A stretch of 64,000 nucleotides of DNA, taken from NCBI GenBank assembly GCA_002427425.1, contig DIRA01000037.1:36509-100508 (forward strand). The letters are read 5' to 3'. This stretch comes from Clostridiales bacterium UBA5448. Lineage in GTDB: Bacteria > Bacillota > Clostridia > Oscillospirales > SIG627. The position numbers and the translations under genes were made by a program. Below, piece by piece: positions 4,470 through 33,000 of this stretch (positions are counted from its first letter, which is position 1; each line of letters begins with the position of its first letter). A model generated the notes under the pieces. That model saw only the letters and a list, made by a program, of their open reading frames with translations, was not told where the DNA came from and did no database searches.

Positions 4470-4546
4470 ATTTCTACTCTCCTTTGGCTATATTGACAAT
4501 TTACCCGAAATATGTTAGGATTATACAAATTTACTCGGAGGTTGCC

Positions 4547-5080
4547 ATGAATCCATCCACCCAGGAAATTCTGGATTTTCTCGATCAACATTACATACAA
4601 CATATTCGATTTTCTCACCCCGTGGTTTTCACCTCGGAAGAAAAAAAACAAAACGATCTAAACAACGGCATAGTCGGTGCCACCCACTGCAAAAATCTGC
4701 TTCTCTGCAATCGCCAGGGTACCTTGTTTTATTTGCTCATACTCCCCTTTGAAAAAAACTTTCGCACCGCGGAAATCTCAAAACAACTGGGCGTGTCCAG
4801 ATTGAGTTTTTCAACCGAGGAAAAATTGGAAAAATTTCTGCATACCCATGCCGGTGCCGTCAGTCCCCTGGGTCTGATGTACGATCAAGATTTTCGTATC
4901 GGTCTTGCCATGGACCAAGAACTGAAAGACAAGGCCCTGCTTTGCTTTCACCCCAATGAGGAATCCATCACCTGCATCTTTAACAATGACGTGTTTTACA
5001 ATCAATTGCTTCCTCTTTTGCGGCACAGGCCCCACTTTATTAAAGTGGAAGAAATTCCCATGCATCATACCGAAGTATAA
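4547..5080 (+). CDS. Prolyl-tRNA-synthetase-associated (YbaK/ProX-like) aminoacyl-tRNA deacylase domain protein
   Basis: An internal ATG at 4547 has GGAG 7 nt upstream. The ORF-track start at 4439 overlaps the divergent gene. The motif pattern HCKNLLL...GAVSPLGL is typical of the ProX/YbaK family. Confidence 0.7.
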   Translation: MNPSTQEILDFLDQHYIQHIRFSHPVVFTSEEKKQNDLNNGIVGATHCKNLLLCNRQGTLFYLLILPFEKNFRTAEISKQLGVSRLSFSTEEKLEKFLHTHAGAVSPLGLMYDQDFRIGLAMDQELKDKALLCFHPNEESITCIFNNDVFYNQLLPLLRHRPHFIKVEEIPMHHTEV

Positions 5081-5101: not shown

Positions 5102-5137
5102 AGCCGGAAACAGACTGCTGTTTCCGGCTCTCTTTTT
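5102..5137. terminator. Bidirectional terminator between convergent genes
   Basis: A 12-bp perfect stem agccggaaacag-actg-ctgtttccggct is followed by ctcttttt. Confidence 0.75.
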
Positions 5138-7409
5138 ACATATTGTCCTTTTCGCGGATATCCACCCGGCGGATCTTTCCGCTGATGGTCTTAGGCAATT
5201 CATCTGTAAATTCCACGATGCGGGGATATTTATAAGGTGCGGTATGGGTTTTTACATATTCTTTGATTTCCTTGATCAAGTCATCGCTGCCCACGGTACC
5301 TTTTGTCAGCACGATGGTGGCTTTGACAACCTGACCGCGAACGGGATCGGGAACACCGGTAACAGCGCATTCCAGTACATAGGGAAGTTCCATCAGAACA
5401 CTTTCGATTTCAAAAGGCCCGATACGGTAACCGGAGGATTTGATCAAATCATCCACACGGCCCACAAACCAGAAATAGCCGTCTTCATCCCGCCAGGCGG
5501 TGTCGCCGGTATGATAATAGCCATCATGCCATGCCTTGTCGGTGGCTTCCTGGTTTCGATAGTAACCGGAGAACAAGCCGCAAGGTTTGTTGTCCGGGGT
5601 GGCACGAACGACAATTTCGCCCACCTCCCCCACTTTACAGGATACGCCCCCGCTGTTTAGCAGATCCATATGATACATGGGGCTTGGTTTTCCCATGGAA
5701 CCGGGCTTCATGTCCTCCCCTAAGAGGTTACAGATGGTCAGGGTGGTTTCGGTTTGACCGAATCCTTCCATCAGCTTGATACCGGTTGCAAGCAAAAATT
5801 GCTGGTATACTTCCGGGTTGAGTGCTTCGCCGGCAGTGGAAGCATATTCCAAACTGGAAAGATCATAGGAAGACAAATCTTCTTTGATAAAGAAACGATA
5901 CATGGTAGGTGGGGCGCAGAAAGTGGTGATTCCATATTTGCTGAAAAGAGGTAAAATGTCTTTTGCATCAAACTTATGAAAATCATAGGTGAAAATGGCT
6001 GCTTCGCATAGCCACTGACCATAGATCTTACCCCACAAGGCTTTCCCCCATCCCGTATCGGAAATGGTAAAGTGGATACCGTCGGGATTGACATTGTGCC
6101 AGGATTTCGCTGTAATCAAATGACCCAAAGAATAGGTGTAACTATGGGCAGCGATTTTGGGATACCCGGTGGTACCGGAGGTAAAGTACATCAACGAAAC
6201 TTCGTCGAACTTATTGTCTACCCGGCGGATGAAATCGCTATGGTTGGCATATTCCGTGTTGAAATGATACCATCCTTCTCTGGGAGAACCTACCATGATT
6301 TTGGTTTCAATGCCGTTGTATTCTTCCATGGCCAGTTCAACCTGATGGGATACATCCCCTTGGGAGGTACAAACCAAAGCGGATACGCCGGCTGCCTGGA
6401 AACGGTAAACCAAATCTTTTTTCACCAACTGGTCGGTGGCAGGGATAACAATGGCACCCAGCTTATGAAGTGCCAAGATGGAATACCAAAATTGGTAGTG
6501 TCGTTTCAAAATCAGCATGACACGATCGCCTTTTTTGATACCCAGTGAAGCAAAATAATTGGCTGTGCGGGAAGATTCTCTGGCCATATCGCCAAAGGAA
6601 AAGCGGCGCTCGGTCTTATTTTCATCCAAATGGAGCATGGCAAGTTTATCGGGACATTTTTTCGCCAATGCATCCACAACATCATAAGCAAAGTTATAAT
6701 TATCGGGATAATGGAAAGAAATATCGATCAGCTTTCCTTTTTCGTCTTCCACAAGATCGGCAAATCTGCGGAAGATACTGTCCGCATCGTTTCTGCGATG
6801 AGCGAAGTGATAATGACCACCGCGCGAGACATTGTCATGCCCGGTTTCATTGTCCATGACCACCGCAAGAAAGGTGCAATCTGCGTCCCAGGCAATCATA
6901 CCGTGAGGAATGGAGCTGTCATAGTACAACGTATCTCCTTCACTTAATACCTCTTCGCTGTCGCCGATTACGACTTTGAGCTTGCCTTTTAGGATATAGT
7001 CAAACTCTTCCCCCTTATGGGTAGAAACAGGAATGGGTTTGTTCATTTCGGCCGGATCAAACTTGGCTTGCACCAGGAAGGGTTCACTGAATTTTCCCTT
7101 AAAGTTGGTTGCCAGGAGTTGATAGGAAAAACCTTCTGTACGATTTAGCATGGCACCCTCTCCTTTACGGAGAACGGAGTACCGGGAAAGTTTCGGCTGT
7201 TCCCCGGTCAGAAGGTCGTTGATGTCGATATCGAAAATATCGGCACATTTGTGAAGCATGGCAAACGTAAAATCTGTTTCTCCGCTTTCACATTTTAAAT
7301 ACAATTCGGTTTCCATGCCCAGCATGGATGCCATTTCATCGCTGGTTTTACCTGAGATCCGTCGCAACTCGGCCACACGGCTTGCGATTAAGATGTTGTT
7401 GTTATCCAT
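5136..7409 (-). CDS. Fusion protein: XRE-family HTH + cupin domain + AMP-forming short/medium-chain acyl-CoA synthetase
   Basis: The start is the ATG at 7409 (MDNNNIL) with GAGGGAAA upstream. The longer track ORF to 7535 would run through the T-box terminator. The N-terminus is an HTH_3-like domain (SGKTSDEMASMLGMETELYLKCESGE). It is followed by a cupin (HKGEEFDYILKGKL...GDTLYYDSSIPHG). The remainder is an ACSM-like AMP-binding enzyme (NFAYDVVD, YFTSGTTGYPK, YHTGD, GRVDDLIKSSGYRIGPFEIE, PKTISGKIRR). Confidence 0.85.
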   Translation of the reverse strand: MDNNNILIASRVAELRRISGKTSDEMASMLGMETELYLKCESGETDFTFAMLHKCADIFDIDINDLLTGEQPKLSRYSVLRKGEGAMLNRTEGFSYQLLATNFKGKFSEPFLVQAKFDPAEMNKPIPVSTHKGEEFDYILKGKLKVVIGDSEEVLSEGDTLYYDSSIPHGMIAWDADCTFLAVVMDNETGHDNVSRGGHYHFAHRRNDADSIFRRFADLVEDEKGKLIDISFHYPDNYNFAYDVVDALAKKCPDKLAMLHLDENKTERRFSFGDMARESSRTANYFASLGIKKGDRVMLILKRHYQFWYSILALHKLGAIVIPATDQLVKKDLVYRFQAAGVSALVCTSQGDVSHQVELAMEEYNGIETKIMVGSPREGWYHFNTEYANHSDFIRRVDNKFDEVSLMYFTSGTTGYPKIAAHSYTYSLGHLITAKSWHNVNPDGIHFTISDTGWGKALWGKIYGQWLCEAAIFTYDFHKFDAKDILPLFSKYGITTFCAPPTMYRFFIKEDLSSYDLSSLEYASTAGEALNPEVYQQFLLATGIKLMEGFGQTETTLTICNLLGEDMKPGSMGKPSPMYHMDLLNSGGVSCKVGEVGEIVVRATPDNKPCGLFSGYYRNQEATDKAWHDGYYHTGDTAWRDEDGYFWFVGRVDDLIKSSGYRIGPFEIESVLMELPYVLECAVTGVPDPVRGQVVKATIVLTKGTVGSDDLIKEIKEYVKTHTAPYKYPRIVEFTDELPKTISGKIRRVDIREKDNM

Positions 7410-7437
7410 ACTATTTCCCTCTTCTTTCCTCTTATAT

Positions 7438-7690
7438 AAAAAAGTCCGCCCCTGTGAATCAGGGACGGACAAAATCCGTGGTACCACCCATATTGGCAGA
7501 TACAATCTGCCCGCTTTCAGGTCAAATAACCTCATTGCCTTAACGCGGCCCAGCTCGTTGCCGCCTACTTTTCAGCGGCACCGCTCAGAAATGATGTGTT
7601 CAAACGACTTCTCACCGACTTGCACCACCCGTCGGCTCTCTGTATAGGAGTACTTGTTCAAACCGTTTTCGTCACAGCGTTTGTGTTTTT
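7438..7690 (-). promoter_or_regulatory. T-box leader RNA (tRNA-sensing transcription attenuator)
   Basis: Read on the minus strand. A K-turn-like Stem I base (CGC-UGU-GA-C-GAAA ... UUUC-U-GA-GCG). An S-turn-like AAGUA. The AG bay AGAGAG. A distal hairpin CCGAC-GGGUGGUGCAA-GUCGG. Stem III GGCAGAU-UGU-AUCUGCC. The T-box sequence AAUAUGGGUGGUACCACGG. An antiterminator (GGG/CCC and ACGGA/UCCGU around a UGGUACC bulge) that competes with the terminator GUCCGUCCCUG-AUUCA-CAGGGGCGGAC-U6 (7438-7470). Confidence 0.85.
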
Positions 7691-7693
7691 TAC

Positions 7694-7722
7694 ATTATAT
7701 GATGTTCGTTTTATTTTGTCAA
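7694..7722 (-). promoter_or_regulatory. Consensus sigma-A type promoter for the T-box leader
   Basis: Minus strand TTGACA-17 nt-TATAAT, an exact consensus, about 12 nt after the stop of the upstream LtaS-family gene. Confidence 0.7.
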
Positions 7723-7734
7723 GTGGTTTAGAAA

Positions 7735-10041
7735 TTATTTTTTCATGGATGCTGCATGAGCAGCGGCAGCCTCCGGGAACAAAATGGCATAATAATCGTT
7801 ATTCAAAATCGCTGTAGAAGCCGTACATTTGTTCTTAACAACCTCAATAACCGCTTCCACATATCCCTGAGGAATGAGATATTCATCCACAAGATAAGTG
7901 ATCTGACGAGTAGAAGCGTTGTATTTCACATAGTCGGTAATAAAGGACTGATCGCTGAGAATGGCAATCCCGGCGGCAGAGGAGAACACATCGTTGCCGG
8001 AAAGAAGCCTGGAATCGTATTCAAATCCGAACAGATTCAAAATTGTGGGAAGGACATCAATGGCACAGCAGGTCTTGGTAACGGTTCTTTCTTCCTCGGT
8101 CATGGTATGAATCATTTGGGAGTTATAGAGAATCAATGTGCTGTTGTATTTATCAAAGCCGGTATCAATGGTTTCGCCCACCAGGTTGTTATATTGTTTA
8201 GATGACAATCCATAGGGGTAATGATCGGCACCCAGCACGAATACTGTTTTATCTAAAACACCGGCTTCTTCCAACCGTTTACACAGTTCTTCTAACATTT
8301 TGTCCAGCTCAATATGGCAAGCCAGATATGCCTGACATACTTCGTCGTACTTCTCGCCATTTTTATTGTACTGGTGTTTTTGTGTCGCACTCTTATTTTT
8401 CACGGCCATATAGTTTAAAGGAACCAGATTCCCGTCGGAGTCTTCCTTCAGCTCAAAGGTATACCGATAGTGGCCGCTGACAGTCATATAATACGCATGG
8501 AATTGCTCCATGTTGATAAAATCACCGTAGGACTGCTTGGCCATTTCATAGTCGGATTCCGGCCAACCGGTCACAGATAAGCCCTGGTTTCTGGCCTTAA
8601 AGATATACCCCATGTTGGGATGGGTAATGTTTCTGGAATAGTACGTTTTGGTGTGGTTGTGATAAGCATAAGCCTGAACGCCAATGGAATCAAACGCATT
8701 GCCCAGACAGTAGGGCATATAGTTTTCCTTGGAAGCCACAAAACTGCCATTGGATTTTTCTCTCGCCAAGTCAGGAATCAAACCGGTACAAAACGCATAT
8801 TCCCCATTGGTGGTATTAGAAGGGAACATGGTGTAATAGTTGTTAAAAATGAACCCTTCCGTGGCCATTTTATACAAGGTAGGAGTCAATTCGGGTTCAA
8901 TAATAGCACCGGATGAAAAGCTTTCCGCGCAAATATAGATCAGATTATACCCTTTGAACATACCGGTATACTCATTCTTAGTAGTACCGGAAATGGTTTT
9001 ATAATACTCATGAAGCTTTTTGATGACATGATTGGTTTCCCCGGCGATCATGGCATCAAAGTCGATCTCCAGCACGTTATAGGTAACTTCGGGATTGGGC
9101 GTACCGGGATTATCTCCGTTGGAATTGTCAGGATCCTTGTTTCCGTCAGGACCCGGCTTCACATCGATCGAAGGTACATCCACAGGATCCAGCGTCACTT
9201 CCTTGTCTCCCGTCTCGTATTTGGGGCGCAATCCCATATCCTGCAACGTAGCGGTTACCATCCCCAGTTTGGATATCTGCGTGCTGAGCGCACCGGAATT
9301 GAAATAGAGATCATACGGTGTATGATAACCGGTACCGGGGATAAACAAGGAAAGGACGGTTATGCCGTAACTGAGAATCATGACGATGCTCAATACCAAC
9401 TGCGCCTTGGGAGGTCTGCGTTGAAAAAAATAAAAATTCTTTTTAATATAAATGCTGATATTACCAATGAATTTTTCAACGTGATTTCCCGTGGTCAACC
9501 GCTCCACTCTGGAAGGTTTACCAGCGATCCAATATTGAACAACGATGAAAAGATATACCAGAAGCGGGACACATAAAATCACAATGTTTCCCAAATTGAT
9601 GTAGATTAAATGAATGATTTCATCTGCAAACGTGTTCATGGCATCCTCTGCCACGCCTTTGAGAGAAAATGTAAAGAAATCGTTGAAAATATCGTAGTAA
9701 ATCATTTGGAAATTATAGTAGAAGCTGAACATTAAGAGAAAAAGCCCCATTATAATTCCATTTGCAATCTTGTGAAACGGCGTCGAAAACAAACTCAGTA
9801 AACAACCAACGGGAATTGCAAACAATACAGGATATAAAAAGTAAATGTCAATACTGCCAAATGTCATCGCTTGTATAATAATTTCGTAATAAACGATAGA
9901 AACAATAAAAAACATTGCCGGCTTGTTCTTTTTGATCCAATTCCAAATGCCCTTAAACAGCTTCTGGCATACCGTCAGACAATCCTGACCAACTGCCTTG
10001 AGCCCTTCCAACCATTTCATGGAATCTTTACCTCTTTTCAT
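7735..10041 (-). CDS. LTA synthase / sulfatase-family phosphoglycerol-type transferase, polytopic membrane protein
   Basis: The N-terminal ~280 aa contain multiple TM helices, followed by a Pro/Asp/Asn-rich linker. The C-terminal alkaline-phosphatase-superfamily domain has LIYICAESFSS and GADHYPYG motifs as in LtaS-like enzymes. Confidence 0.75.
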   Translation of the reverse strand: MKRGKDSMKWLEGLKAVGQDCLTVCQKLFKGIWNWIKKNKPAMFFIVSIVYYEIIIQAMTFGSIDIYFLYPVLFAIPVGCLLSLFSTPFHKIANGIIMGLFLLMFSFYYNFQMIYYDIFNDFFTFSLKGVAEDAMNTFADEIIHLIYINLGNIVILCVPLLVYLFIVVQYWIAGKPSRVERLTTGNHVEKFIGNISIYIKKNFYFFQRRPPKAQLVLSIVMILSYGITVLSLFIPGTGYHTPYDLYFNSGALSTQISKLGMVTATLQDMGLRPKYETGDKEVTLDPVDVPSIDVKPGPDGNKDPDNSNGDNPGTPNPEVTYNVLEIDFDAMIAGETNHVIKKLHEYYKTISGTTKNEYTGMFKGYNLIYICAESFSSGAIIEPELTPTLYKMATEGFIFNNYYTMFPSNTTNGEYAFCTGLIPDLAREKSNGSFVASKENYMPYCLGNAFDSIGVQAYAYHNHTKTYYSRNITHPNMGYIFKARNQGLSVTGWPESDYEMAKQSYGDFINMEQFHAYYMTVSGHYRYTFELKEDSDGNLVPLNYMAVKNKSATQKHQYNKNGEKYDEVCQAYLACHIELDKMLEELCKRLEEAGVLDKTVFVLGADHYPYGLSSKQYNNLVGETIDTGFDKYNSTLILYNSQMIHTMTEEERTVTKTCCAIDVLPTILNLFGFEYDSRLLSGNDVFSSAAGIAILSDQSFITDYVKYNASTRQITYLVDEYLIPQGYVEAVIEVVKNKCTASTAILNNDYYAILFPEAAAAHAASMKK

Positions 10042-11872: not shown

Positions 11873-13677
11873 GAAAAGAATTCCTCCATATCCGCAATTT
11901 TTGAGCCGGGATAAAAGAAGGTGGCAATTTCTTCATACTGCCAGCCCAAATTAGCAAGATCCCGGGCGCAGTATTGGCTCATGCCGATTCCATGACCATA
12001 GCCTTGACCGAAAATACCGTACGTGGAATTATCCACCTGATAGCCGGATACTTGATTTTCGGAAAAGGTTCCTTCCGGTACGTGAGAAAGCATGGCAATG
12101 CTGTTTACGTTGAGATAGGAATAATACAACTTGCCGTTGACGGACCAAACCTGATTGCCGCCCGGCATTCGCAAGGTAGTGGGGTTTGCTAATTTAAAGT
12201 TTGCACTTTTCACGGAAAAAACACTGCGGATATTGCTGCACTGGGAATATGTATAGGTTTTCCCCGCCGAATTGGTCAGGCGAACCTTGTATACATACCC
12301 GCTTTCGGTGTAAGACAGCACCTCCACCTTGGTGATTTTTTTCGTTCCCAAGGTACTTGTGACCCTGGAACTGTCCAGTAGTAAATCGGACATTTGGGTG
12401 GCGGTATAGGTAGAACTCCAGGTGGCACCCGAAATCTGGTCATAGGTTTCCTGGGGCATGTACACCGGGGAAAGATAGGAATATTTCACGGGATCGGAAC
12501 CCCATACGTTTTTGGCAGACTCGCTGACCCCGCCGTGGGAGGAAGAATAATAGGCAACCACCAGCTTGTTTTTACAGGATAATACCATCCCCCGGGTGAC
12601 TTCCACCGCACGATCAGTTGCCACGGTGGCTTTCAGCCGCCCCTTGTAAACCTGACAGTGGGTGGTGGGGCAAATGTGGAATCCCTGGGCGGCATGATTG
12701 GAGGAAATAATTTTATCCAACGAATATGACCGCACCGCAATGGAAAAGCCTTTCAAGCATTCTTCCGGCCAGGTGTTGAACACTTCGGAAGGGACCACGC
12801 ACTTGATGTATTCTTCAAAATCCACCACATTGGTCAAAGACATGCCCGTATCGGTAGCGGCATATTCAAAGACACCGGGATACGCGTTGCCCAAAAGCAC
12901 CTGAGTGTAATACACCTGTACAGTGGAATAATCGGGCTGTACGGGATAAGCATTTAAGAGGTTTTGTCCGGTCACCACTTTGGTAATGACCCGTCCCTGG
13001 GACACCACCGCCAAGGTGGTTTCATCTCCGACAAACACCTCGTAGGTAAAAGGAGTGTCCTTTTGCAGGGTTTCAATGGCGGCGGTGGCATCGGCGGCGG
13101 TGGCATACTGCCCCACCCCCACATATAAAGCCTGATCTTCAGCGATGGTGTACACATCCACCGTGCCTCCGAAGGCATCGGAAACATCCCGGATAGCACG
13201 CTCAATGACAAAGGGAGAAAAACTCCGCTTTGTAATCAAAGAATAAGGCAAAAAGGTCGGCTTGGAGGAAGAAACATAATTTCCCGAAGCATCCAAAGCG
13301 GCGGCCTTGTTTCTTACCACCGAGGCAGATTTTTCCACCACGCCCAAAGGATATTTCACCCCGTCGATCTCGGTGAAAAAGGTCAAGCCTTTGGCAGCGG
13401 AAATGGTCTGGGAAAACGCCAGGGTATTGATAGAGGAATACTTATATAACAGCCCTACACGAATGGTAATGTTATCAGTGTTTGGCAAAATATTCTCTCC
13501 CGTCCATTCCTTTTCAGGGGTATCGTATCGAGTGGCTTCGTCTACGAGGAAAGTGTGCAGCCAGTCACCATCTTGGGCAAATACACGGGCACCGCAAGCC
13601 GAAAACAATGCCGCGCCAGCCAATATCAGACACAAACCGGCGGCAATGATTCGCATGATAAGTCCTTTAGGGTTCAT
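11869..13677 (-). CDS. SpoIID/LytB domain protein with a long N-terminal extension
   Basis: AAGGAGGGA RBS. Signal/anchor sequence (IIAAGLCLILAGAALFSAC). The C-terminal half carries SpoIID-type motifs (VVPSEV, AVRSYS, CPTTHCQVYKG, YYSSSHGGVSE). At 602 aa it is much longer than the ~340 aa of canonical SpoIID. Confidence 0.8.
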   Translation of the reverse strand: MNPKGLIMRIIAAGLCLILAGAALFSACGARVFAQDGDWLHTFLVDEATRYDTPEKEWTGENILPNTDNITIRVGLLYKYSSINTLAFSQTISAAKGLTFFTEIDGVKYPLGVVEKSASVVRNKAAALDASGNYVSSSKPTFLPYSLITKRSFSPFVIERAIRDVSDAFGGTVDVYTIAEDQALYVGVGQYATAADATAAIETLQKDTPFTYEVFVGDETTLAVVSQGRVITKVVTGQNLLNAYPVQPDYSTVQVYYTQVLLGNAYPGVFEYAATDTGMSLTNVVDFEEYIKCVVPSEVFNTWPEECLKGFSIAVRSYSLDKIISSNHAAQGFHICPTTHCQVYKGRLKATVATDRAVEVTRGMVLSCKNKLVVAYYSSSHGGVSESAKNVWGSDPVKYSYLSPVYMPQETYDQISGATWSSTYTATQMSDLLLDSSRVTSTLGTKKITKVEVLSYTESGYVYKVRLTNSAGKTYTYSQCSNIRSVFSVKSANFKLANPTTLRMPGGNQVWSVNGKLYYSYLNVNSIAMLSHVPEGTFSENQVSGYQVDNSTYGIFGQGYGHGIGMSQYCARDLANLGWQYEEIATFFYPGSKIADMEEFFS

Positions 13678-15818: not shown

Positions 15819-16100
15819 TTATTCTCCTTTCAACGTATCAACGCGTTTGTGTGCTTGTTTGAGAGATTCCTCACAACGGGTGAGCCGTTCGGTAATCCCG
15901 GAAAGCCGCTGGGCGAATTCCCGGTTTTCCCGTTTGAGATCGTCCACACCCGCTTTGATATATCCCACATCTGAGACCAGGACCCCTTTGTTTACCCCTT
16001 CCCCCGCAATGTCTTTACGGCTGGTCTGTCGAAAGACCAGCGCCGAGATCAGCATTCCGGCAACCCCCGTTAAAATGGGAATCACAGTCACCCAGCTCAT
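15819..16100 (-). CDS. Small membrane-anchored coiled-coil protein of the lysis cassette (XhlA-like role possible)
   Basis: The ATG at 16100 overlaps the upstream stop (ATGA). An N-terminal TM (VTVIPILTGVAGMLISALVF) is followed by a heptad-like region (DDLKRENREFAQRLSGITERLTRCEESLKQAHKRVDTLK). Its orientation is opposite to B. subtilis XhlA, so the family assignment is uncertain. Confidence 0.45.
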   Translation of the reverse strand: MSWVTVIPILTGVAGMLISALVFRQTSRKDIAGEGVNKGVLVSDVGYIKAGVDDLKRENREFAQRLSGITERLTRCEESLKQAHKRVDTLKGE

Positions 16101-18358
16101 GCCGACACCGGGAAAGCGCTGCTTTCCAGAAGCCAGACAGACCCCGACCATTTGCCCCGAAGGATATACAGCGTGTTTGCAGCGGGGGTCAGGGAAAACG
16201 AACCGATATTCCCCGACATCGTCAATGCGGTGGGAACGCTGCCCGAAGCAAAACAGACAAAGCAGGTCTGTCCCCGTGCGCCGGAGGCAGGAAGAGAAAA
16301 AGACAAAGAAGTCTTCTCTCCTACATAATATTCCGTTTGGGGTATAAGAATGCCATTTTCCGGCAAAATCGTTTCTGTTTTAGGCAAAACCGAGCGGACG
16401 GCATAGTCCAGAAGGGCCGGGGTAATCGGTCTGCAGTTGTTGGCGGTCACGCTGCCTGTTGGATCTTCCATAGCGGATCTGCTATCAATAATTGCATTGG
16501 TGGCAGGAAAAACGCGGGGATAGGTATTGCCGTAATAAGTACCTGAAGTGATACCACCCGTGGTTATGTTATAAAAACCGATCACCCCTGCACCTGTTCC
16601 GGCGGAAGTCAGAGAGTTTGCCTTGTCGGCATATTTGACCAGAGGAGTCCAGGTGCTTACCTCCCCGCCGGATGTACAAAGAAACAGTTTCCCCGTCATG
16701 CTATTGCGGTAAATACTCCCCGCCTGCCCAACAGCGGAGGGGGTGGGATCGGTAGGACCGGTTAGAAATTTAGGCTCGGCATATAAGAACAACGCGTCAG
16801 AAAACCTCAGATTGTACGTTACATCCAAACAGCCGCTTGCCGTTTCCGAAACAGACAAAACGGTTGTTGTTGGATATACAGATTGTAAACTGTTTATTTC
16901 AACCGTGTCGCCTTCGGTCAAACTGCCTGAGATAGCATATTTTTGACATCCTTGATATTGAATATCGTCTGTTTTTATGCTTCCAACTTCAAGCATCGGA
17001 ACAATCGTATCATTTAAAGTTGCGCCGGGGTGTCCTTGGATATAAATACGATGAATGTAAGCCGCTTCTGTCAGTGTAAACACACCGCTTTTGTTTCCTG
17101 CGTTGCTTGTTTGTATCACAACACTGATATTGCTGTCCCATCGGGTGCAGTAGGTTCCCGCCGGTATTTTAATGCGTTGTTTTTCCTGGATTGGTACGGA
17201 AAAGAATGCCGTATACGCTGGCACTTCGGGTGTCCCAACCAACGTATAAGAGCCATCTCCGTTGTTTGTGCACGTAATGCCATTTTGGGTTTCGGTCTGA
17301 ATAGCATATAAGCTATCATCCAATAAATTTTTTCCATATACGTGCACAATTGGATTCACTACGTATCCATCCACCCCTTCTTTTCCATGTAACACAACCC
17401 CTAATTTGTGACTGACGATGGAAACATTGTCTAATCGGCACGGATTAATCTGTAAATGTGTTTGTTTTACCGCCTCACCGTAAGCGCTCATGTTCGGCTT
17501 GTTTTTGATGTAATCCGTGGCATCGATATCAGTTTGGCTCCAATCGGATACCGCCCCCGATTCCAAACGGGACAGACGGGTATCAAAACAAAGTGCCTTT
17601 TCCCCGGCGGAAAGGATGGGGCTGTATGCCGTATTCAGGGCATTGAATTTCATGTCGGCATTTTCGTCATAGGCTTTCATGGACGTTGTATGGAGGAAAT
17701 TGTAGGCGGCGGTTTTTTCCGTTGCGTTTTGGTCAAAATTGGTTTTAGCAACAGAAGAAAGAGAAGAGATTTCTGACAGTGCCGTGTTTTTTTGATTGCA
17801 TATAGAAGTTTTTGCATGTTCGGCATCGGTGGCAAAGGTTGCATTCCAGTCTGCCACCTGTGCGGCAAAATCCTCCTGCACCCATACCGTGGTGATATAG
17901 GCCTCGCTGCTTGCGGCACTTTGAGCGGCATGTGCGGCGGCGACGGCAGCGGCAGCGGCAGAGGCGGCAGCGGTGAGGACTTCCTGCACATACTGGTTGA
18001 AAATGTCGGGCGTGGGCGTGGGCAATTCATTGTGTAAAAGCCCCGAATCGGTTACTTCCACTGTGATTACGTTGGTAGTGGCACGATACGTTTCCCCCTT
18101 GACCCCAAACAGACAGATGGTAAAGACGCCCCCCTCCACGAGGACTTCGTTGGGGACCGGATAGGATTTGTTTGGCCGGATGCCCCCCACATGGTAGGCG
18201 GTTTCATCCCCCAAGCGGTGAAATTGGGCAGAAACGGAATAACCTTCCCAGCTTTCGTCGCAGACGTAAGAAAAAGTAGAAAAACCATATCCCCCGGCAA
18301 CAATGGCATCTGAATCGGTTCTGCATAAAGACTGTCCCTGACAGCGTAAAACAATCAT
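16097..18358 (-). CDS. Phage tail-fibre-like / receptor-binding-like protein
   Basis: The ATG at 18358 (MIVLRC) has GGAGGTG 6 nt upstream. The 753-aa protein has an Ala-rich coiled segment (AAASAAAAAVAAAHAAQSAASS) and a beta-rich C-terminal part. It sits directly upstream of the lysis genes. The assignment rests on context and composition, not on a motif. Confidence 0.5.
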   Translation of the reverse strand: MIVLRCQGQSLCRTDSDAIVAGGYGFSTFSYVCDESWEGYSVSAQFHRLGDETAYHVGGIRPNKSYPVPNEVLVEGGVFTICLFGVKGETYRATTNVITVEVTDSGLLHNELPTPTPDIFNQYVQEVLTAAASAAAAAVAAAHAAQSAASSEAYITTVWVQEDFAAQVADWNATFATDAEHAKTSICNQKNTALSEISSLSSVAKTNFDQNATEKTAAYNFLHTTSMKAYDENADMKFNALNTAYSPILSAGEKALCFDTRLSRLESGAVSDWSQTDIDATDYIKNKPNMSAYGEAVKQTHLQINPCRLDNVSIVSHKLGVVLHGKEGVDGYVVNPIVHVYGKNLLDDSLYAIQTETQNGITCTNNGDGSYTLVGTPEVPAYTAFFSVPIQEKQRIKIPAGTYCTRWDSNISVVIQTSNAGNKSGVFTLTEAAYIHRIYIQGHPGATLNDTIVPMLEVGSIKTDDIQYQGCQKYAISGSLTEGDTVEINSLQSVYPTTTVLSVSETASGCLDVTYNLRFSDALFLYAEPKFLTGPTDPTPSAVGQAGSIYRNSMTGKLFLCTSGGEVSTWTPLVKYADKANSLTSAGTGAGVIGFYNITTGGITSGTYYGNTYPRVFPATNAIIDSRSAMEDPTGSVTANNCRPITPALLDYAVRSVLPKTETILPENGILIPQTEYYVGEKTSLSFSLPASGARGQTCFVCFASGSVPTALTMSGNIGSFSLTPAANTLYILRGKWSGSVWLLESSAFPVSA

Positions 18359-18485
18359 AAGATACACCTCCAAATTTGATGCCTCATTTTACCCTGTAAC
18401 CCGACTGACAAATCGTGACAAAGATAAATTGTTTTATAGTATTTTAAGTAGATAATAAAAAATATTATCCTTCAAAACTCTTTAC

Positions 18486-18571: not shown

Positions 18572-21500
18572 ATGGCAAGAAAGAAACTCACCATGGACGG
18601 CAACAACGCGGCGGCGCATGTATCCTATGCGTTTACCGAAGTTGCCGGCATCTACCCCATTACCCCTTCCAGCCCCATGGCAGACTACGTGGATCAGTGG
18701 TCGGCACAGGGTTTAAAAAACATTTTCGGTACCACGGTGAATGTGGTGGAAATGCAGTCTGAAGCAGGGGCAGCAGGTACGGTTCACGGTTCGTTGGCAG
18801 CCGGTGCGCTGACCACCACCTATACCGCATCCCAGGGCCTGCTTTTGATGATCCCCAATATGTATAAAATTGCCGGGGAACTTCTTCCCTGCGTTTTCCA
18901 TGTAACCGCCCGTACCCTCGCTTCTCACGCGCTGAACATTTTCGGCGACCACTCCGACGTGTATGCCTGCCGTCAGACCGGTTTTGCCATGTTGGCGGAA
19001 ACCAACCCCCAGGAAGTCATGGATTTGTCTGCCGTTGCCCACTTGGCTACCATCAAGAGCAGAGTACCGTTTATCAACTTCTTTGACGGGTTCAGAACCT
19101 CCCACGAGATCCAGAAGATCGATGTATGGGATTATGAAGATTTGGCTTCCCTGTGCGACATGGAAGCTGTAGACGCTTTCCGCAAGCGCGCCCTCAACCC
19201 CGAAAGACCCGCGATGCGCGGTTCTCATGAAAACGGCGATATTTTCTTCCAGCACAGAGAAGCTTGCAACCGATACTATGAAGCGGTTCCCGGCATCGTG
19301 GAAGATTACATGAACAAAGTCAACAAAAAGTTGGGTACCCATTATAAACCCTTCAATTACTACGGTGCTCCCGATGCCGAACGCGTCATCGTCGCCATGG
19401 GTTCGATCTGCGATGTAGCGGAAGAAGTCATCGATTATTTGATGGCCAGAGGCGAAAAAGTGGGCTTGGTAAAAGTCCGTTTGTACCGTCCTTTTTCGGC
19501 GGAAAGATTGCTGGAAGCCATTCCCGCCTCCTGTAAGAAGCTGGCTGTTTTGGATCGTACCAAAGAACCCGGTGCCCTGGGCGAACCTTTGTATCTGGAC
19601 GTGGTGACCTCTTTGGCAGAAGCCGGCAGAACCATGACCGTCATCGGCGGCCGTTACGGCTTGGGCTCCAAAGACACGCCTCCCTCCTCCGTCTTCGCCG
19701 TATACGAGGAATTGAATCAGGACAAACCGAAAAGACAGTTCACCCTGGGTATCCACGACGATGTAACCAACCTATCTTTGGAAGAAAAGATTTCCCCCAA
19801 TACTGCGGCACCCGGCACCATCGAATGCAAATTCTGGGGTCTGGGCGGCGACGGTACCGTGGGCGCGAACAAAAACTCCATCAAGATCATCGGTGACCAT
19901 ACCGACAAATACGTACAGGCTTATTTCCAGTACGATTCCAAAAAAACCGGTGGTATCACTATTTCCCACCTGCGTTTCGGCGACAACCTCATCAAATCTC
20001 CTTATTACATCAATAAGGCTGACTTTGTTGCCTGCCACAACCCCTCCTATGTGACCAAGGGATACAAAATGGTCAACGATGTCAAGCCCGGCGGTGCGTT
20101 TTTGATCAACTGCCAATGGACACCCGAAGAATTGGCTGAACAGCTTAATGCCCAAGCAAAGCGCTATATCGCCAAAAACGACATCCGGCTTTATACCGTC
20201 AACGCCATTGACATTGCCGACAAAATCGGCATGGGAAAGCGTACCAATACCATTCTGCAGGCTTCTTTCTTTGCGCTGTCAAAAGTCATGCCCATCGAAG
20301 AAGCGATTGAATACATGAAGAAAGCCGCCACCAAGTCCTATGCTCGAAAGGGGCAGGACATTGTAGACATGAACCACAAGGCCATTGAAGCCGGCGTGAG
20401 TGCCTTTGTAAAGATCGACGTTCCCGCCGATTGGGCAAACGCCGTGGACGAAGTCATTGCCGACGAAGAAAAAGGCGCCTCCAAACTGGTGAAGATGATC
20501 AACAACCTCATGAAGCCCGTGGCTTTGATGAACGGCGACTCTCTCCCCGTTTCCGCCTTCATCGATCATGCGGACGGTACCTTTGAACTGGGTGCTGCCG
20601 CCTATGAAAAACGCGGCGTTGCCGTCACCGTGCCCGAATGGGACCCCGAGTCCTGCGCCAAGTGCAACCGCTGTTCTTACGTATGTCCTCACGCCACCAT
20701 TCGTCCTTATGCACTGAACGAAGAAGAATTGGCAGCTGCTCCCGCCCAGCTGAAAAAGGCTCCCAAACCCGTTGTGAAAACCAACTATACCTACAGCCTG
20801 GCGATTTCTCCTGCCGACTGTATGGGATGTACCGTTTGTGTGGGTGTTTGCCCCACCGATTCATTGAAGATGGTTCCGAGGGAATCTCAGTTGGATCAGC
20901 AGGAAGTCTTTGACTACTGCGTAGAAAACGTCAGCGAAAAACCCGAAATCACTGAAAAGCTCACTCTTTTGACCAGCCAGTTCAAGAAACCGTTGCTAGA
21001 ATTCTCCGGCTCCTGTGCAGGTTGTGCCGAAACCTCCTACGCCAGACTGGTCACCCAGTTGTTCGGTGACAGAATGTATATCTCCAATGCCACCGGCTGT
21101 TCCTCCATCTGGGGCGGCCCTGCGGCCACTTCTCCGTATACCGTCAACAAAGACGGCCGTGGTCCTGCCTGGGCAAACTCCCTATTTGAAGACAACGCCG
21201 AACACGGTATGGGTATGTTCTTAGGTCAGAAAGCCCTCCGGGACAGACAGATCGAGAAAGTGAAGAAGATCGTGGCTTCCGACGCGGCCAACGCCGATTT
21301 GAAAGCCGCTGCCGAAGGCTATCTCGCCACTGTGGACAACGGCGATACCAACGTGAAAGCCACCGATAAACTGGTTGCCGAACTGGTAAAGGTTGCCGAC
21401 AAGTGCGACAACTGCCATAGCATTTTGGAGAACAAAGAATTCCTGTCCAAGAAGTCCGTCTGGATCTTTGGCGGCGACGGCTGGGCATATGACATCGGCT

Positions 21501-22120
21501 TCGGCGGATTGGATCACGTTTTAGCATCCGGCGCAGACGTCAACGTCTTCGTGTTCGATACCGAAGTATACTCCAACACCGGCGGACAAGCCTCCAAGGC
21601 ATCCCAGATAGGTCAGGTTGCCCAGTTTGCAGCGGCGGGTAAATCCATCGCCAAGAAATCATTGGCGGAAATCGCCATGTCTTACGGGTATGTGTACGTG
21701 GCACAAGTTGCCATGGGTGCCGACCTGAACCAGACATTGAAGGCAATCCAGGAAGCGGAAGCCTATCACGGACCATCTCTCATCATCGGTTACGCTCCTT
21801 GCGAAATGCACTCCATCAAGGGTGGCATGGCAAACTGCCAGAGCGAAATGAAGAAGGCTGTGGAAAGCGGCTATTGGAACATGTTCCGCTTTAATCCCGT
21901 TTTGAAGTCTGCAGGAAAGAATCCCTTGACCTTGGACAGCAAGCCCGCGACCGGCGACTACAAAGAGTTCATTTTGAACGAAGCCCGATACTCATCTTTG
22001 ACCAGATCCTTCCCCGAAAGAGCGGAAGAACTGTTCAACAAAGCGTCCGAAAACGCCAAAGCGCAGAGAGAACATCTGGAAAGACTGGTCAAACTCTACG
22101 CCCCCTCCGACGCCGAATAA
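18572..22120 (+). CDS. nifJ: Pyruvate:ferredoxin (flavodoxin) oxidoreductase
   Basis: The 1182-aa single-chain PFOR has a characteristic N-terminus (MDGNNAAAHVSYAFTEVAGIYPITPSS), two 4Fe-4S ferredoxin motifs (CAKCNRCSYVCPH, CMGCTVCVGVCP) and a TPP-binging C-terminal domain (GGDGWAYDIGFGGLDH). Confidence 0.95.
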   Translation: MARKKLTMDGNNAAAHVSYAFTEVAGIYPITPSSPMADYVDQWSAQGLKNIFGTTVNVVEMQSEAGAAGTVHGSLAAGALTTTYTASQGLLLMIPNMYKIAGELLPCVFHVTARTLASHALNIFGDHSDVYACRQTGFAMLAETNPQEVMDLSAVAHLATIKSRVPFINFFDGFRTSHEIQKIDVWDYEDLASLCDMEAVDAFRKRALNPERPAMRGSHENGDIFFQHREACNRYYEAVPGIVEDYMNKVNKKLGTHYKPFNYYGAPDAERVIVAMGSICDVAEEVIDYLMARGEKVGLVKVRLYRPFSAERLLEAIPASCKKLAVLDRTKEPGALGEPLYLDVVTSLAEAGRTMTVIGGRYGLGSKDTPPSSVFAVYEELNQDKPKRQFTLGIHDDVTNLSLEEKISPNTAAPGTIECKFWGLGGDGTVGANKNSIKIIGDHTDKYVQAYFQYDSKKTGGITISHLRFGDNLIKSPYYINKADFVACHNPSYVTKGYKMVNDVKPGGAFLINCQWTPEELAEQLNAQAKRYIAKNDIRLYTVNAIDIADKIGMGKRTNTILQASFFALSKVMPIEEAIEYMKKAATKSYARKGQDIVDMNHKAIEAGVSAFVKIDVPADWANAVDEVIADEEKGASKLVKMINNLMKPVALMNGDSLPVSAFIDHADGTFELGAAAYEKRGVAVTVPEWDPESCAKCNRCSYVCPHATIRPYALNEEELAAAPAQLKKAPKPVVKTNYTYSLAISPADCMGCTVCVGVCPTDSLKMVPRESQLDQQEVFDYCVENVSEKPEITEKLTLLTSQFKKPLLEFSGSCAGCAETSYARLVTQLFGDRMYISNATGCSSIWGGPAATSPYTVNKDGRGPAWANSLFEDNAEHGMGMFLGQKALRDRQIEKVKKIVASDAANADLKAAAEGYLATVDNGDTNVKATDKLVAELVKVADKCDNCHSILENKEFLSKKSVWIFGGDGWAYDIGFGGLDHVLASGADVNVFVFDTEVYSNTGGQASKASQIGQVAQFAAAGKSIAKKSLAEIAMSYGYVYVAQVAMGADLNQTLKAIQEAEAYHGPSLIIGYAPCEMHSIKGGMANCQSEMKKAVESGYWNMFRFNPVLKSAGKNPLTLDSKPATGDYKEFILNEARYSSLTRSFPERAEELFNKASENAKAQREHLERLVKLYAPSDAE

Positions 22121-27933: not shown

Positions 27934-29190
27934 ATGAAGAAACTGCTTTCCCTGCTGTTGGTCATCTGTTTGGTCGCATCCATGACTATGCTGGTCAGCT
28001 GCGGCGACAAAGACAACGACAACGGCAAAGACAACACGGGCGACGGAGACAACAATAAAGGCAAAAACAACGAAAAAGACGACGAAAAACCTACCTCGTT
28101 CCCGGCCATTTCCAAAGAAAACCTGAAAATCGGCGTGATCCATATCGGTGATCCCGCAGACGGTTCCGGCTATTCTTATACCCATGATCTGGGCATCCAG
28201 GGCATGCAGAGAAATCTAGGTTTGTCCGACAATCAAATCGTTCGCAAGCTCAACGTAGACGATGGTGACACCACAGCCATCCGTACCGCCATCGAAGAAT
28301 GCATCACGGACGGATGCAACCTGATTTTCGGTACTTCCTACGGCTATATGCAACCCATGAATGATTTGGCCAAACAATTCCCCGAAGTTCTTTTCTCCCA
28401 TGGCACCGGTTACATGTCCAATGATTACAACTTCAACAACTACTTTGGCCGCATTTACCAGGCCAGATACCTGGCTGGTATCGCTGCCGGTCTGAAAGCA
28501 ACCCAGGGTGGCAAAGTGGGTTATGTGTCTGCATACGGCACCGAATTGGCCGAAACCTGCTCCGGTATCAACGCGTTCGCTCTGGGCGTTCAGTCTGTAA
28601 ACCCCACCGCGGTTGTGTATGTAAAATCCCTCAGTTCCTGGTATGATCCTGGAATGGAAACCGCTTGTGCCAATTCTCTCATCGATATGGGATGTGAAGT
28701 CATTGCCCAACACTGCGATACCGCCAACCCCCAGATTGCTGCCCAGACCAGCGGCGTGTTCGGCTGCGGCTACAACAGCAATATGACCCCGCAGGCCCCC
28801 AATGCCCATCTGACCGCTCCCATCTGGAATTGGGATGTGTATTACACCACCGCAGCCCAGGCTGCCATCGACGGCAAGTTCTCCGAAATGGGTAACTACT
28901 ATGGCGGTTTGAAGGAAGGCTTTGTGGATGTATCCCCCCTGTCCGACAACTGCGTGGAAGGTACACAGGACAAAATCGACGCTGTGAAAGCCCTCATCAT
29001 TACCGGTGAATGGGATGTGTTCTCCGGCGTAAAACTCTCCTTTGATGAAAACGGCGCTCTGGTAAAAACCGACGCCGATCTGAAAGACAATCAAGGCAAA
29101 GTGATCGTGGCAACCGGCGGTGCCTCCGTGGCTGATTCCGTCCTCCAGGGCTCCATGAACTACTTTGTCGCAGGCGTTGACCTGAAATAA
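27934..29190 (+). CDS. BMP-family (PnrA-like) ABC substrate-binding lipoprotein, probable nucleoside binding
   Basis: Lipobox MLVSCGD. A low-complexity Asp/Asn/Lys linker. A BMP-family core (IGVIHIGDP.DGSGYSY.H, GKVGYVSAYG). Confidence 0.8.
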   Translation: MKKLLSLLLVICLVASMTMLVSCGDKDNDNGKDNTGDGDNNKGKNNEKDDEKPTSFPAISKENLKIGVIHIGDPADGSGYSYTHDLGIQGMQRNLGLSDNQIVRKLNVDDGDTTAIRTAIEECITDGCNLIFGTSYGYMQPMNDLAKQFPEVLFSHGTGYMSNDYNFNNYFGRIYQARYLAGIAAGLKATQGGKVGYVSAYGTELAETCSGINAFALGVQSVNPTAVVYVKSLSSWYDPGMETACANSLIDMGCEVIAQHCDTANPQIAAQTSGVFGCGYNSNMTPQAPNAHLTAPIWNWDVYYTTAAQAAIDGKFSEMGNYYGGLKEGFVDVSPLSDNCVEGTQDKIDAVKALIITGEWDVFSGVKLSFDENGALVKTDADLKDNQGKVIVATGGASVADSVLQGSMNYFVAGVDLK

Positions 29191-29221
29191 TTGTAACAAT
29201 CCTAAATACATCTTTGTGCGA

Positions 29222-29248
29222 AAGGGCACTGCATACCGCGGTGCCCTT
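29222..29248 (+). promoter_or_regulatory. Intercistronic hairpin between the binding-protein and ATPase genes
   Basis: aagggcac-11 nt-gtgccctt with no clear T tract. This position is typical for differential expression of the SBP versus the membrane complex. Confidence 0.35.
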
Positions 29249-29281
29249 CGTAAAGTTTCATGAACCTAAGAGAGTTTGTAT

Positions 29282-32023: not shown

Positions 32024-33000
32024 GTGCCTTGATTGCTTATTTATTTGCCGCCATCGCCCGCAGCACCCCCCTTCTGATGGGTACCACCGGGGAAATCATG
32101 ACGGAAAAAGGAGGCTCCTTAAACCTCGGTGTAGAAGGCATGATGGCAGTAGGCGCCATCACCGGATATTTGGCAGCGGTGACTTTCGACAACCTGCTTC
32201 TGGGGATCGTAGCATCCTTCATCGGTGCCGCTTTATGCGGATTGTTGTATGCCTTTTTGACCGTGACCCTCCAGTCCAACCAAAACGTCACCGGGATTGC
32301 CCTATCCACCTTCGGTGTTGCCTTGTATAAATTCATCGGCAACCGTATGACCCAATGGGACGGCGGTTTTCCCGTGGCAAGCAAATTTCCCCATTTGACC
32401 GGAGTCCTGCGTATCCAAGGCATTCCCGTGCTACGAGATATCCCCTACGTAGGTCCTTTGCTTTTTTCCCATAACCTTCTTGTGTATTTCGCTGTTTGCG
32501 TTTCTGTTTTGTGCTGGTTGTATATTTTCAAAACCAAAAACGGTTTAAAACTCCGTGCCGTGGGAGAAAATCCTTCGGCGGCGGACGCAGCCGGAGTCAA
32601 CGTAGGCCGATACCGTTATATCCACGACATCATCGGCGGCGGCATTTGCGGCATCGGCGGTTTGTATCTGGGTCTTGTGACCAACGGCAGTTGGAACGAA
32701 AGTTGGATCAACGGCACCGGCTGGATTGCTGTGGCTCTGGTTATATTCGCCAACTGGAACCCCCTCATCGCCATTTTCGGTTCTTTCTTCTTTGGTATGC
32801 TTCAGGAATTGACCGTGAGAAAAGGAAATTTGGTAGAAGAATTCCCCGGACTATCCTTTTTGAATGACATACCGGATGATTTTTACAACCTGCTCCCCTT
32901 TGCCTTCACCGCTTTGGTACTGATTCTGGCAGGTGTGTTGAAAAGAAAAAATGCTGAACCTTCCGGGCTGGGGCTCAATTACTTTCGGGAAGAACGCTGA
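32020..33000 (+). CDS. ABC transporter permease (second membrane subunit)
   Basis: ATGA overlap with the fused gene. 326 aa, multi-TM, with G-rich helices typical of the nucleoside/sugar CUT2-like permeases. Confidence 0.8.
   Translation: MSALIAYLFAAIARSTPLLMGTTGEIMTEKGGSLNLGVEGMMAVGAITGYLAAVTFDNLLLGIVASFIGAALCGLLYAFLTVTLQSNQNVTGIALSTFGVALYKFIGNRMTQWDGGFPVASKFPHLTGVLRIQGIPVLRDIPYVGPLLFSHNLLVYFAVCVSVLCWLYIFKTKNGLKLRAVGENPSAADAAGVNVGRYRYIHDIIGGGICGIGGLYLGLVTNGSWNESWINGTGWIAVALVIFANWNPLIAIFGSFFFGMLQELTVRKGNLVEEFPGLSFLNDIPDDFYNLLPFAFTALVLILAGVLKRKNAEPSGLGLNYFREER

Follow-up and report, generated by a model that had tools for sequence, protein, structure and literature searches.

The stretch of DNA analysed here, hereafter the window, comprises 64,000 nt of contig DIRA01000037.1 from Clostridiales bacterium UBA5448 (assembly GCA_002427425.1). 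On its minus strand lies a gene for a 757-residue protein in which a helix-turn-helix (HTH)-like domain and a cupin barrel are fused to a short/medium-chain acyl-CoA synthetase (ACS), and the gene is preceded by a T-box leader (Table 1). The features of this gene and of its relatives point to a ligase, switched by isoleucine supply, which would open a salvage route from 2-methylbutyrate to isoleucine.

The open reading frame (ORF) is uninterrupted; its ATG at 7409 lies 7 nt downstream of the ribosome-binding site AGAGGG (7422..7417) and is the called start in three independent assemblies. A longer version starting at 7535 was rejected, because this start is inside the leader, upstream of the leader's terminator, and is not credible. 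Rejected as well was the possibility that the fusion is an assembly or frameshift artefact, a concern raised by an earlier reading made from the letters alone (the sequence-only reading): the identical protein is found within the same gene neighbourhood in one NCBI and two ENA assemblies, and 80 of 80 species-level loci encode full-length fusions. The single HTH-cupin-ACS reading frame which had been described there is borne out by the ORF and by a scan with Pfam models, in which all four domains were matched: AMP-binding (residues 249–617; 187.9 bits, cutoff 29.9), AMP-binding_C (residues 667–745; 83.2 bits, cutoff 24.5), Cupin_2 (residues 127–183; 40 bits) and HTH_19 (residues 10–71), the latter with 30.0 bits just under its cutoff of 30.2. 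HTH_31 is also under its cutoff in the window protein; for homologues, precomputed matches to HTH_19 and HTH_3 exist. The motifs noted before (NFAYDVVD, YFTSGTTGYPK, GYRIGPFEIE, and PKTISGKIRR) are all present in the translation.

The T-box leader is the sole Rfam family match across the window; it scores 107.2 bits with RF00230 (gathering score 93; E = 1e-22) over model positions 1–219, which is the full model; about 10 nt separate the first of these positions from the upstream promoter. In the fold of Stem I, ACAUCA is left unpaired, and AUC with the A that follows lies within the internal loop; the UGGN element of the T-box is present as UGGGUGGUACC. The terminator hairpin (7470..7444) folds with −21.7 kcal/mol (z = −6.7), and none of 200 shuffled sequences folded as well. 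As the specifier is AUC, the leader reads tRNA-Ile and not tRNA-Val; thus, of the two tRNAs considered in the sequence-only reading only the first stands, and a valine specifier was rejected. Predicted from the specifier, the leader should respond to uncharged tRNA-Ile. The gene is monocistronic, because the gene upstream of its promoter ends at 7735 and the downstream neighbour is convergent.

Table 1. Features of the fused synthetase gene and its leader (positions in the window)
Feature	Position	Strand	Basis
Sigma-70-type promoter: TTGACA 7722..7717, 17-nt spacer, TATAAT 7699..7694	7694..7722	minus	sequence reading
T-box leader: Stem I with specifier loop, Stem II/III, antiterminator	7458..7684	minus	Rfam RF00230
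Specifier codon AUC (Ile), followed by A at 7592	7593..7595	minus	Rfam alignment on specifier positions
T-box sequence UGGGUGGUACCACGG, antiterminator bulge pairing with tRNA 3' NCCA end	7476..7490	minus	Rfam, sequence reading
Intrinsic terminator GUCCGUCCCUG / loop AUUCA / CAGGGGCGGAC, then U6	7438..7470	minus	RNA fold
Coding sequence, 757 residues and stop	5136..7409	minus	identical product called in three assemblies
HTH-like five-helix domain, residues 1–72, XRE fold, net charge −7	7194..7409	minus	Pfam HTH_19, AlphaFold2
Cupin barrel, residues 76–186	6852..7184	minus	Pfam Cupin_2
Invariant cupin His131	7017..7019	minus	family alignments
Invariant cupin Glu135	7005..7007	minus	family alignments
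Invariant cupin His169	6903..6905	minus	family alignments
Linker, residues 187–209	6783..6851	minus	low AlphaFold2 confidence (pLDDT); stand-alone homologues end here
Short/medium-chain acyl-CoA synthetase, residues 210–757	5139..6782	minus	Pfam, match to PDB 3ETC
Codon of Gly455, motif SDTGW-G-K, acyl-pocket position	6045..6047	minus	tracks T-box specifier

Leaders and gene neighbourhoods of the orthologous genes

The three-domain architecture, a survey of which had been proposed, is widespread: at least 120 protein clusters with approximately 58–65% identity to the window protein have cupin and AMP-binding domains, nearly all of them together with an HTH match. When one genome per species was scanned, at least 599 stretches were found to encode a relative; the locus analyses refer to the best 80 of these, which all cover the query from residue 1/8 to residue 748/756. 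They stem from metagenome-assembled genomes (MAGs) of gut and rumen Clostridia (Oscillospiraceae, Ruminococcus, Acutalibacteraceae, Christensenellaceae), with the exception of two from Lentisphaerae/Victivallaceae.

Of the 80 loci, 69 carry the motif CAAUUUGAGUGGUACCGCGG with a terminator behind it 80–300 nt upstream of the gene (two of the 11 loci without it have upstream DNA too short to judge); the orthologues therefore do carry the amino-acid-linked regulation on which the sequence-only reading had staked its case. The specifier column in a MAFFT alignment of 66 leaders holds AUC or GUA/GUC only, and a scan of the whole loci revealed 86 fused genes behind a T-box of their own, 55 with AUC, 22 with GUA, 5 with GUC, and 4 unresolved, calls which mostly come from a motif/regular-expression scan, not from a custom covariance model. 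Five leaders were aligned by Rfam (E = 1e-17 or better, three of them slightly under the gathering score), which gave AUC for L079 (4336) and L016 (9662), GUA for L016 (12341) and L079 (7144), and CUG for L079 (15622). Several orthologous leaders reach 84–88 bits, below the gathering score of 93, yet align over the full model with E = 1e-17 or better. In a neighbour-joining tree the proteins behind Val T-boxes form a single clade and those behind Ile T-boxes two; the window protein falls into a clade of mostly single-copy loci.

ORFs neighbouring the 80 fused genes were grouped into clusters, which were annotated with Pfam and NCBIfam. At about 30 loci, a recurrent, co-oriented array of three units emerged, many arrays being cut by contig ends. 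The Ile unit consists of a T-box with AUC and an HTH-cupin-ACS protein of approximately 755 residues. The Val unit, behind a T-box with GUA or GUC, encodes an HTH-cupin-ACS protein of approximately 762 residues, a P-loop protein, the delta, alpha, beta, and gamma subunits of a VorB-type 2-oxoacid:ferredoxin oxidoreductase (VOR), and the branched-chain aminotransferase IlvE. VOR alpha passes the cutoff of the NCBIfam model for VorB (547 bits, cutoff 399) and IlvE that of its own model (505 bits, cutoff 307); VOR delta is a two-cluster ferredoxin of 73 residues, and beta and gamma were assigned by domain annotation (TPP_enzyme_C and POR, respectively). Counted downstream on the same strand, the P-loop protein occurs at 29 loci, VOR alpha at 26, beta at 22, gamma at 20, and IlvE at 15. 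The presence of VOR and IlvE behind a Val T-box makes sense only for amino-acid formation, because breakdown under starvation would be counterproductive; the route guessed in the sequence-only reading, from the acid via its CoA ester and the 2-oxo acid to the amino acid, is thus encoded in the orthologous loci that combine the Val-T-box fusion with VOR and ilvE.

The P-loop protein of the Val unit (220 residues, CbiA/ParA/NUBPL-like; for example L010, 12318–12980) invariably follows the Val-type ligase and precedes the VOR delta ferredoxin at its 29 loci, and has no NCBIfam match. Possibly it serves VOR in Fe-S maturation or as a carrier.

The Leu unit, present at 15 loci (L010, 4558–8802; also among others L013, L023, L039, L058–L060, L063, L064, L069, L070, L072, and L079), has a T-box with CUC or CUG, a LeuA-like protein of 454–470 residues, and a fused ACS of 839 residues, in which a xylose-isomerase-like TIM barrel (AP_endonuc_2) is joined to an AMP-binding ACS of a different subfamily. 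The LeuA-like protein fails every LeuA cutoff and has lost the catalytic RDGxQ and HxH motifs in 15 of 15 cases; the allosteric domain of LeuA is strongly conserved. From its sequence it looks like a leucine sensor that has been kept beside the ligase, and the Leu unit may serve to convert isovalerate to leucine, with a pseudoenzyme as sensor.

Some further features of these loci are noted. A 6S RNA (Rfam RF00013, 55.5 bits) lies at L016 8776–8964 (minus), immediately upstream of the Ile T-box unit. Extra T-box-like motifs occur in the flanks of L025 (19665), L038 (17531), L015 (14006, minus), L019 (4536, minus), L023 (15789), and L032 (12841), two of them with CUC specifiers. A T-box-free subclade of rumen Ruminococcus type comprises L012, L027, L040, L045, L046, and L067; in L045 four tRNA genes follow just downstream (12603–12919). 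The two fusions from Lentisphaerae/Victivallaceae (L062, 10001–12285; L065, 10001–12258) are full-length, lack a T-box and VOR neighbours, and were probably acquired from Clostridia by horizontal transfer.

The catalytic domain and its putative substrate

The catalytic domain is clearly an ANL enzyme of the MacsMa/ACSM branch, as judged from its sequence. The signatures YFTSGTTGYPK (motif I), YYHTGDTAW (motif III), and PKTISGKIRR (motif A10, with the catalytic Lys) are present in the translation and invariant in the family alignment, and the closest solved structure is PDB 3ETC, the MacsMa enzyme of Methanosarcina acetivorans (688 bits, 57% identity over 524 aligned residues); other solved relatives are 4-hydroxybutyrate-CoA ligase (377 bits) and ACSM2A (354 bits). 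MacsMa prefers 2-methylbutyrate, the sole substrate it carries cleanly through both half-reactions, and has a critical Trp259 (PMC10455477). This residue, in AKYW, aligns with Trp437 of the window protein, which is invariant in the family alignment. The best NCBIfam model is MbcS (NF047394); with 461.3 bits and an equivalog cutoff of 850, the protein is not an MbcS equivalog. The activation of a branched short-chain acid that had been guessed earlier thus has sequence support both from MacsMa and from MbcS as the best model.

Comparison of 55 proteins behind Ile T-boxes with 27 behind Val T-boxes revealed 16 discriminating positions, only one of which, residue 455, is in the catalytic domain: it is Gly in 55 of 55 Ile-type proteins, as in MacsMa, and Ala in 26 of 27 Val-type proteins. 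In the HMMER alignment (query 400–752 with residues 255–616 of Salmonella enterica Acs; shared D-x-G-W) it falls on position 310 of Acs. A smaller side chain (Gly) for the C5 acid and an extra methyl group (Ala) for the C4 acid is the direction to be expected. In the split forms L084 and L088, in which ligase and N-terminal module are separate proteins, the pocket position is Met (SDTGWMK). Most likely the synthetase prefers 2-methylbutyrate, with 2-methylbutyryl-CoA as its predicted product.

The N-terminal module

The N-terminal part had been taken for a transcription-factor module of the PuuR/SutR type. As far as the fold is concerned, an XRE-type HTH followed by a cupin, this stands: AlphaFold2 models the module with a mean confidence (pLDDT) of 88.5 as helices 3–18, 23–29, 34–42, 49–58, and 63–68 plus a cupin barrel, and Foldseek matches it best to 1Y9Q, an uncharacterised XRE-cupin protein of Vibrio cholerae (TM-score 0.67–0.74), to the iron enzyme HppE (hydroxypropylphosphonate epoxidase; E = 4e-15, at a TM-score of only 0.49), and also to Psf4, HEPD, and MPnS. 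In the model of the full-length protein, residues 188–205, with pLDDT below 50, form a disordered linker. At the profile level, the module aligns with HppE over both domains (E = 6e-10; profile 7–184 on HppE 10–196), and His131, Glu135, and His169, invariant in three alignments, fall on the H/E/H of the HppE segments SGHAGNEF and VPHAF, which we take to be its iron-binding triad His138/Glu142/His180.

The other half of that view, a DNA-binding regulator that implies autoregulation, found no support. A DNA-binding surface calls for a basic or neutral HTH with polar or basic residues in the recognition helix, and the HTH-like domain is acidic in every member: its net charge is −7 in the window protein, and across the family it has a median of −8 among the 39 stand-alone homologues and of −5 to −6 among the 100 fused proteins, whereas 434 Cro, 434 repressor, and SinR carry +2 to +9; the consensus of the recognition helix is G-V-S-x-E-E-Y, with two Glu. 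No inverted repeat was found at the window promoter (7680–7760; distant targets were not searched), and the upstream regions of three split forms contain only unrelated repeats, none of them shared. The alignment with HppE over both domains speaks against a regulator, too. A BirA-type trigger enzyme, in which the HTH-cupin part truly binds DNA, represses or activates its own gene or others, and couples catalysis to transcription, with the acyl-adenylate or a ligand of the cupin as a possible co-effector, is therefore unlikely in our view. Such an arrangement would agree with the Pfam and precomputed annotations, which place the N-terminus in HTH_19/HTH_3/HTH_31, with profile matches that include real repressors (SinR, 434 repressor, DdrO), and with the deposition of 1Y9Q as a transcriptional regulator; also, split forms and some orthologues have no T-box and would need other regulation. 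However, besides the charge, the recognition helix, and the missing repeats, HTH_19 scores just under its cutoff, HppE has the same two-domain layout and is an enzyme, and transcription of the window gene is already under T-box control. BirA itself joins an HTH, of the winged-helix kind, to an acyl-adenylate-forming enzyme and acts on a defined operator, its corepressor being biotinyl-AMP; the window protein has an acidic HTH-like domain, its promoter revealed no operator, and a T-box governs transcription. Ligand-gated enzyme activity, the alternative offered earlier beside autoregulation, fits better.

An exhaustive search for the module returned 552 clusters at 50% identity (E = 1e-10 or better). 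Stand-alone homologues of 185–198 residues, about 50% identical to the module, exist; in three of four cases looked up, their genes are directly upstream of, or overlap, a gene for an unfused ACS of 545–553 residues from the same family, and the fourth adjoins a DUF2238 gene. As the split genes adjoin in three of four cases, the two halves are functional partners, fused or not. Split forms are located at L084 (6001–8280), L088 (6001–8227), and L089 (4001–6253). One split form is very abundant (listed in 1040 collection blocks) and has amylosome-type neighbours; L084 is from a very abundant gut species, possibly Ruminococcus bromii, with dockerin, CBM26, and amylase genes nearby.

The behaviour of paralogues is informative with respect to the role of the module. 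In 18 genomes with both an Ile-type and a Val-type copy, paralogues of the same genome were compared with orthologues between genomes. Identity of the N-domain of the ACS is 71.5% between paralogues and approximately 73% between orthologues, that of its C-domain 90.0% and approximately 86%; for the HTH-like domain the values are 45% and 58–67%, and for the cupin 54% and 67–70%. The ratio of paralogue to orthologue identity is thus 0.98–1.04 for the catalytic domain and 0.73–0.79 for the N-terminal module. Among the positions conserved to at least 85% in both groups, 14 of 68 differ in the module and 1 of 279 in the catalytic domain (Gly455/Ala), so that the identity of a paralogue is carried by its module and one pocket residue. 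Tandem Ile- and Val-type copies occur at 18 loci (for example L016, 9968–14935; L079, 4805–9742), and their sequences suggest either gene conversion or a very strong constraint on the catalytic domain, in which only Gly455/Ala has been kept different. Paralogue-specific residues in the module would be expected if it recognised a pathway-specific molecule, with which the pattern is consistent without being proof of it. A comparable case is the Leu unit, where a catalytically dead LeuA-like protein with its Leu-binding domain accompanies the ligase. Our proposal, which we hold tentatively and at slightly less than even chances, is that the module does not bind DNA and instead senses a ligand specific to its pathway through a His/Glu/His site, probably in a metal-dependent manner, and thereby tunes the ligase.

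Competing explanations and relation to known systems

In the explanation we favour, transcription from the sigma-70-type promoter would pass the AUC leader and its terminator only when uncharged tRNA-Ile stabilises the antiterminator. The ligase would then convert 2-methylbutyrate to 2-methylbutyryl-CoA as the first step of salvage, a VorB-type 2-oxoacid:ferredoxin oxidoreductase would reductively carboxylate the CoA ester to 3-methyl-2-oxopentanoate, and IlvE would transaminate the latter to isoleucine. The window gene is the Ile unit, the partner enzymes of which must be encoded elsewhere in the genome. The N-terminal module would bind a molecule related to isoleucine (isoleucine itself, its 2-oxo acid, the acid, or the CoA ester) and tune the ligase, adding fast feedback at the level of the enzyme to the slower RNA control by the T-box. 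For the enzymatic part, we infer with strong support a 2-methylbutyrate-CoA ligase that opens isoleucine salvage by reductive carboxylation; the whole, that is, a ligase switched by an Ile T-box and equipped with a ligand sensor, appears to us probable, though by no means assured.

Several points weigh against this explanation. A tblastn search of the window revealed no VOR, no ilvE, and no second ACS, only the ACS itself and weak matches in a pyruvate:ferredoxin oxidoreductase (PFOR), in agreement with the earlier remark that no VOR gene is adjacent; and the window's clade consists mostly of single-copy loci without VOR or ilvE neighbours. In the rumen Ruminococcus MAGs L012, L027, L040, L045, and L067, Rfam in E-value mode found no T-box, nor did the Rfam scan of the split forms L084 and L088. 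The assignment of Gly455 to Val310, a residue of the acetate pocket of Acs, depends on HMMER coordinates and on the D-x-G-W motif. The sensor role is deduced from divergence patterns only, and the paralogue-specific residues could reflect drift after duplication, not a change of ligand; the full-length AlphaFold2 model, with its disordered linker, has a pTM of 0.65. Finally, the adenylation step of MacsMa is broad and accepts C3–C8 acids (PMC10455477), because of which arguments from the pocket are only suggestive.

A role like that of MbcS, where 2-methylbutyryl-CoA made upon isoleucine starvation would prime anteiso fatty acids, for which isoleucine is the usual source, and not be turned back to isoleucine, is improbable. 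It has been demonstrated for the related enzyme of Staphylococcus aureus, which activates 2-methylbutyrate and isobutyrate (PMC10026030, PMC11167679), and would agree with MbcS as the best model (461 bits) and with the lack of VOR and ilvE in the window. The score is, however, far under the equivalog cutoff; at about 30 related loci the VOR and IlvE genes share the orientation of a Val-type copy and its Val T-box, and the division into three units with Ile, Val, and Leu codons agrees with a role in amino-acid supply. MbcS also differs in that it feeds membrane fatty-acid primers and has neither an N-terminal module nor a T-box.

Still less probable, in our view, is a catalytic cupin, a metal enzyme like HppE, HEPD, or MPnS which would epimerise, oxidise, or otherwise convert the acid, its CoA ester, or the 2-oxo acid in an additional step. 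Such an activity would account for the invariant His131, Glu135, and His169 on the iron-binding segments of HppE and for the Fe(II) enzymes among the top Foldseek matches, but the acid can reach the amino acid without any additional step, Val-type copies keep the module although isobutyrate is achiral, and chemistry that depends on O2 is hard to reconcile with hosts which are presumably strictly anaerobic inhabitants of gut and rumen; split-gene pairs and paralogue-specific residues fit a partner or regulator as well. HppE and 1Y9Q share the five-helix HTH-like domain and the cupin with the window module at approximately 20% identity; HppE acts on its own, as an oxidative enzyme of the fosfomycin pathway, whereas the module here is fused or adjacent to a CoA ligase in anaerobes, in a pathway from which no catalytic step is missing. 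A different substrate (acetate, propionate, 4-hydroxybutyrate, or an aromatic acid), with the T-box serving another link to isoleucine, is very unlikely: the relationship to 4-hydroxybutyrate-CoA ligase and ACSM2A and the C3–C8 range of MacsMa would allow it, but MacsMa is by far the closest solved relative, the Gly/Ala switch tracks the Ile/Val specifiers, and VOR alpha passes as VorB.

Of the known systems, MacsMa (MA4008) has the SDxGW-G-K pocket with Gly and the critical Trp in common with the window enzyme; it is archaeal and lacks both the HTH-cupin module (the match begins at query residue 210) and a T-box, and we know of no pathway context that has been assigned to it. T-boxes control ileS, valS, and the ilv-leu operon in Firmicutes, the specifier naming the amino acid to be restored. 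The window leader is of the same riboswitch class and follows the same logic; its target differs in being a fatty-acid-activating ligase (in relatives, an operon with VOR and IlvE), so that salvage from branched acids takes the place of a tRNA synthetase, transporter, or de novo pathway. That rumen bacteria carboxylate branched acids reductively was reportedly described by Allison and Bryant in the 1960s, in classical work of a physiological kind; the orthologous operons, with a four-subunit VorB-type enzyme and IlvE directly after the ligase, match this route, and the window is without an adjacent VOR. A literature search found no gene-level description of the branched-acid activating enzymes or of their regulation; in the full-text literature the fusion, its T-box control, and the operon were found undescribed, although an earlier mention in T-box comparative genomics could exist.

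Elsewhere in the window, the only 2-oxoacid oxidoreductase is the PFOR, 11 kb from the ligase gene (18572–22120, plus), a NifJ-type single polypeptide of 1182 residues (POR_N, PFOR_II, POR, EKR, Fer4, TPP_enzyme_C). Pfam searches with 20 further ORFs of the window found transporters, a diaminopimelate (DAP) dehydrogenase, and a polysaccharide cluster, and no genes of branched-chain amino acid metabolism. The convergent neighbour of the ligase gene (4544–5080, plus; stop codons 56 nt apart) encodes a YbaK/ProX-type aminoacyl-tRNA editing domain (tRNA_edit, PF04073), a functional link of which to the ligase is not evident. A PnrA/Bmp-type ABC uptake system, including a 915-residue fusion of two ABC ATPases and a permease, is located at 27934–33000 (plus), a large polysaccharide-biosynthesis cluster at 34067–60651, and a 758-residue ORF without Pfam match at 16097–18373.

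What is new is the combination of a sensor-like module on a branched-acid ligase, T-box control, and, in relatives, a three-unit salvage regulon for Ile, Val, and Leu. It is possible, if rather doubtful at present, that in gut and rumen Clostridia these units form a previously undescribed modular T-box regulon which rebuilds the three amino acids from branched fermentation acids and in which each ligase is coupled to its own end-product sensor; for Ile and Val this would be the acidic HTH-like/cupin module with its His/Glu/His site, for Leu a dead LeuA with its Leu-binding domain. If so, adenylate-forming enzymes would have in the HTH-cupin module a new type of allosteric domain, which goes back to a transcription-factor fold but has lost the ability to bind DNA, and the locus would be a natural case in which an HTH fold has become the sensor domain of an adenylating enzyme.

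Many cellulolytic and starch-degrading bacteria of gut and rumen need isobutyrate, 2-methylbutyrate, or isovalerate, a requirement for which branched volatile fatty acids are fed to ruminants. The locus and its relatives provide candidate genes for every step of the route from branched acid to amino acid; the specifier codons label which acid each ligase serves, and the one-residue switch between Gly and Ala in the pocket is testable by mutagenesis. If the assignment is true, genome-based models could predict which gut species consume branched acids and thus cross-feed on amino-acid fermenters.

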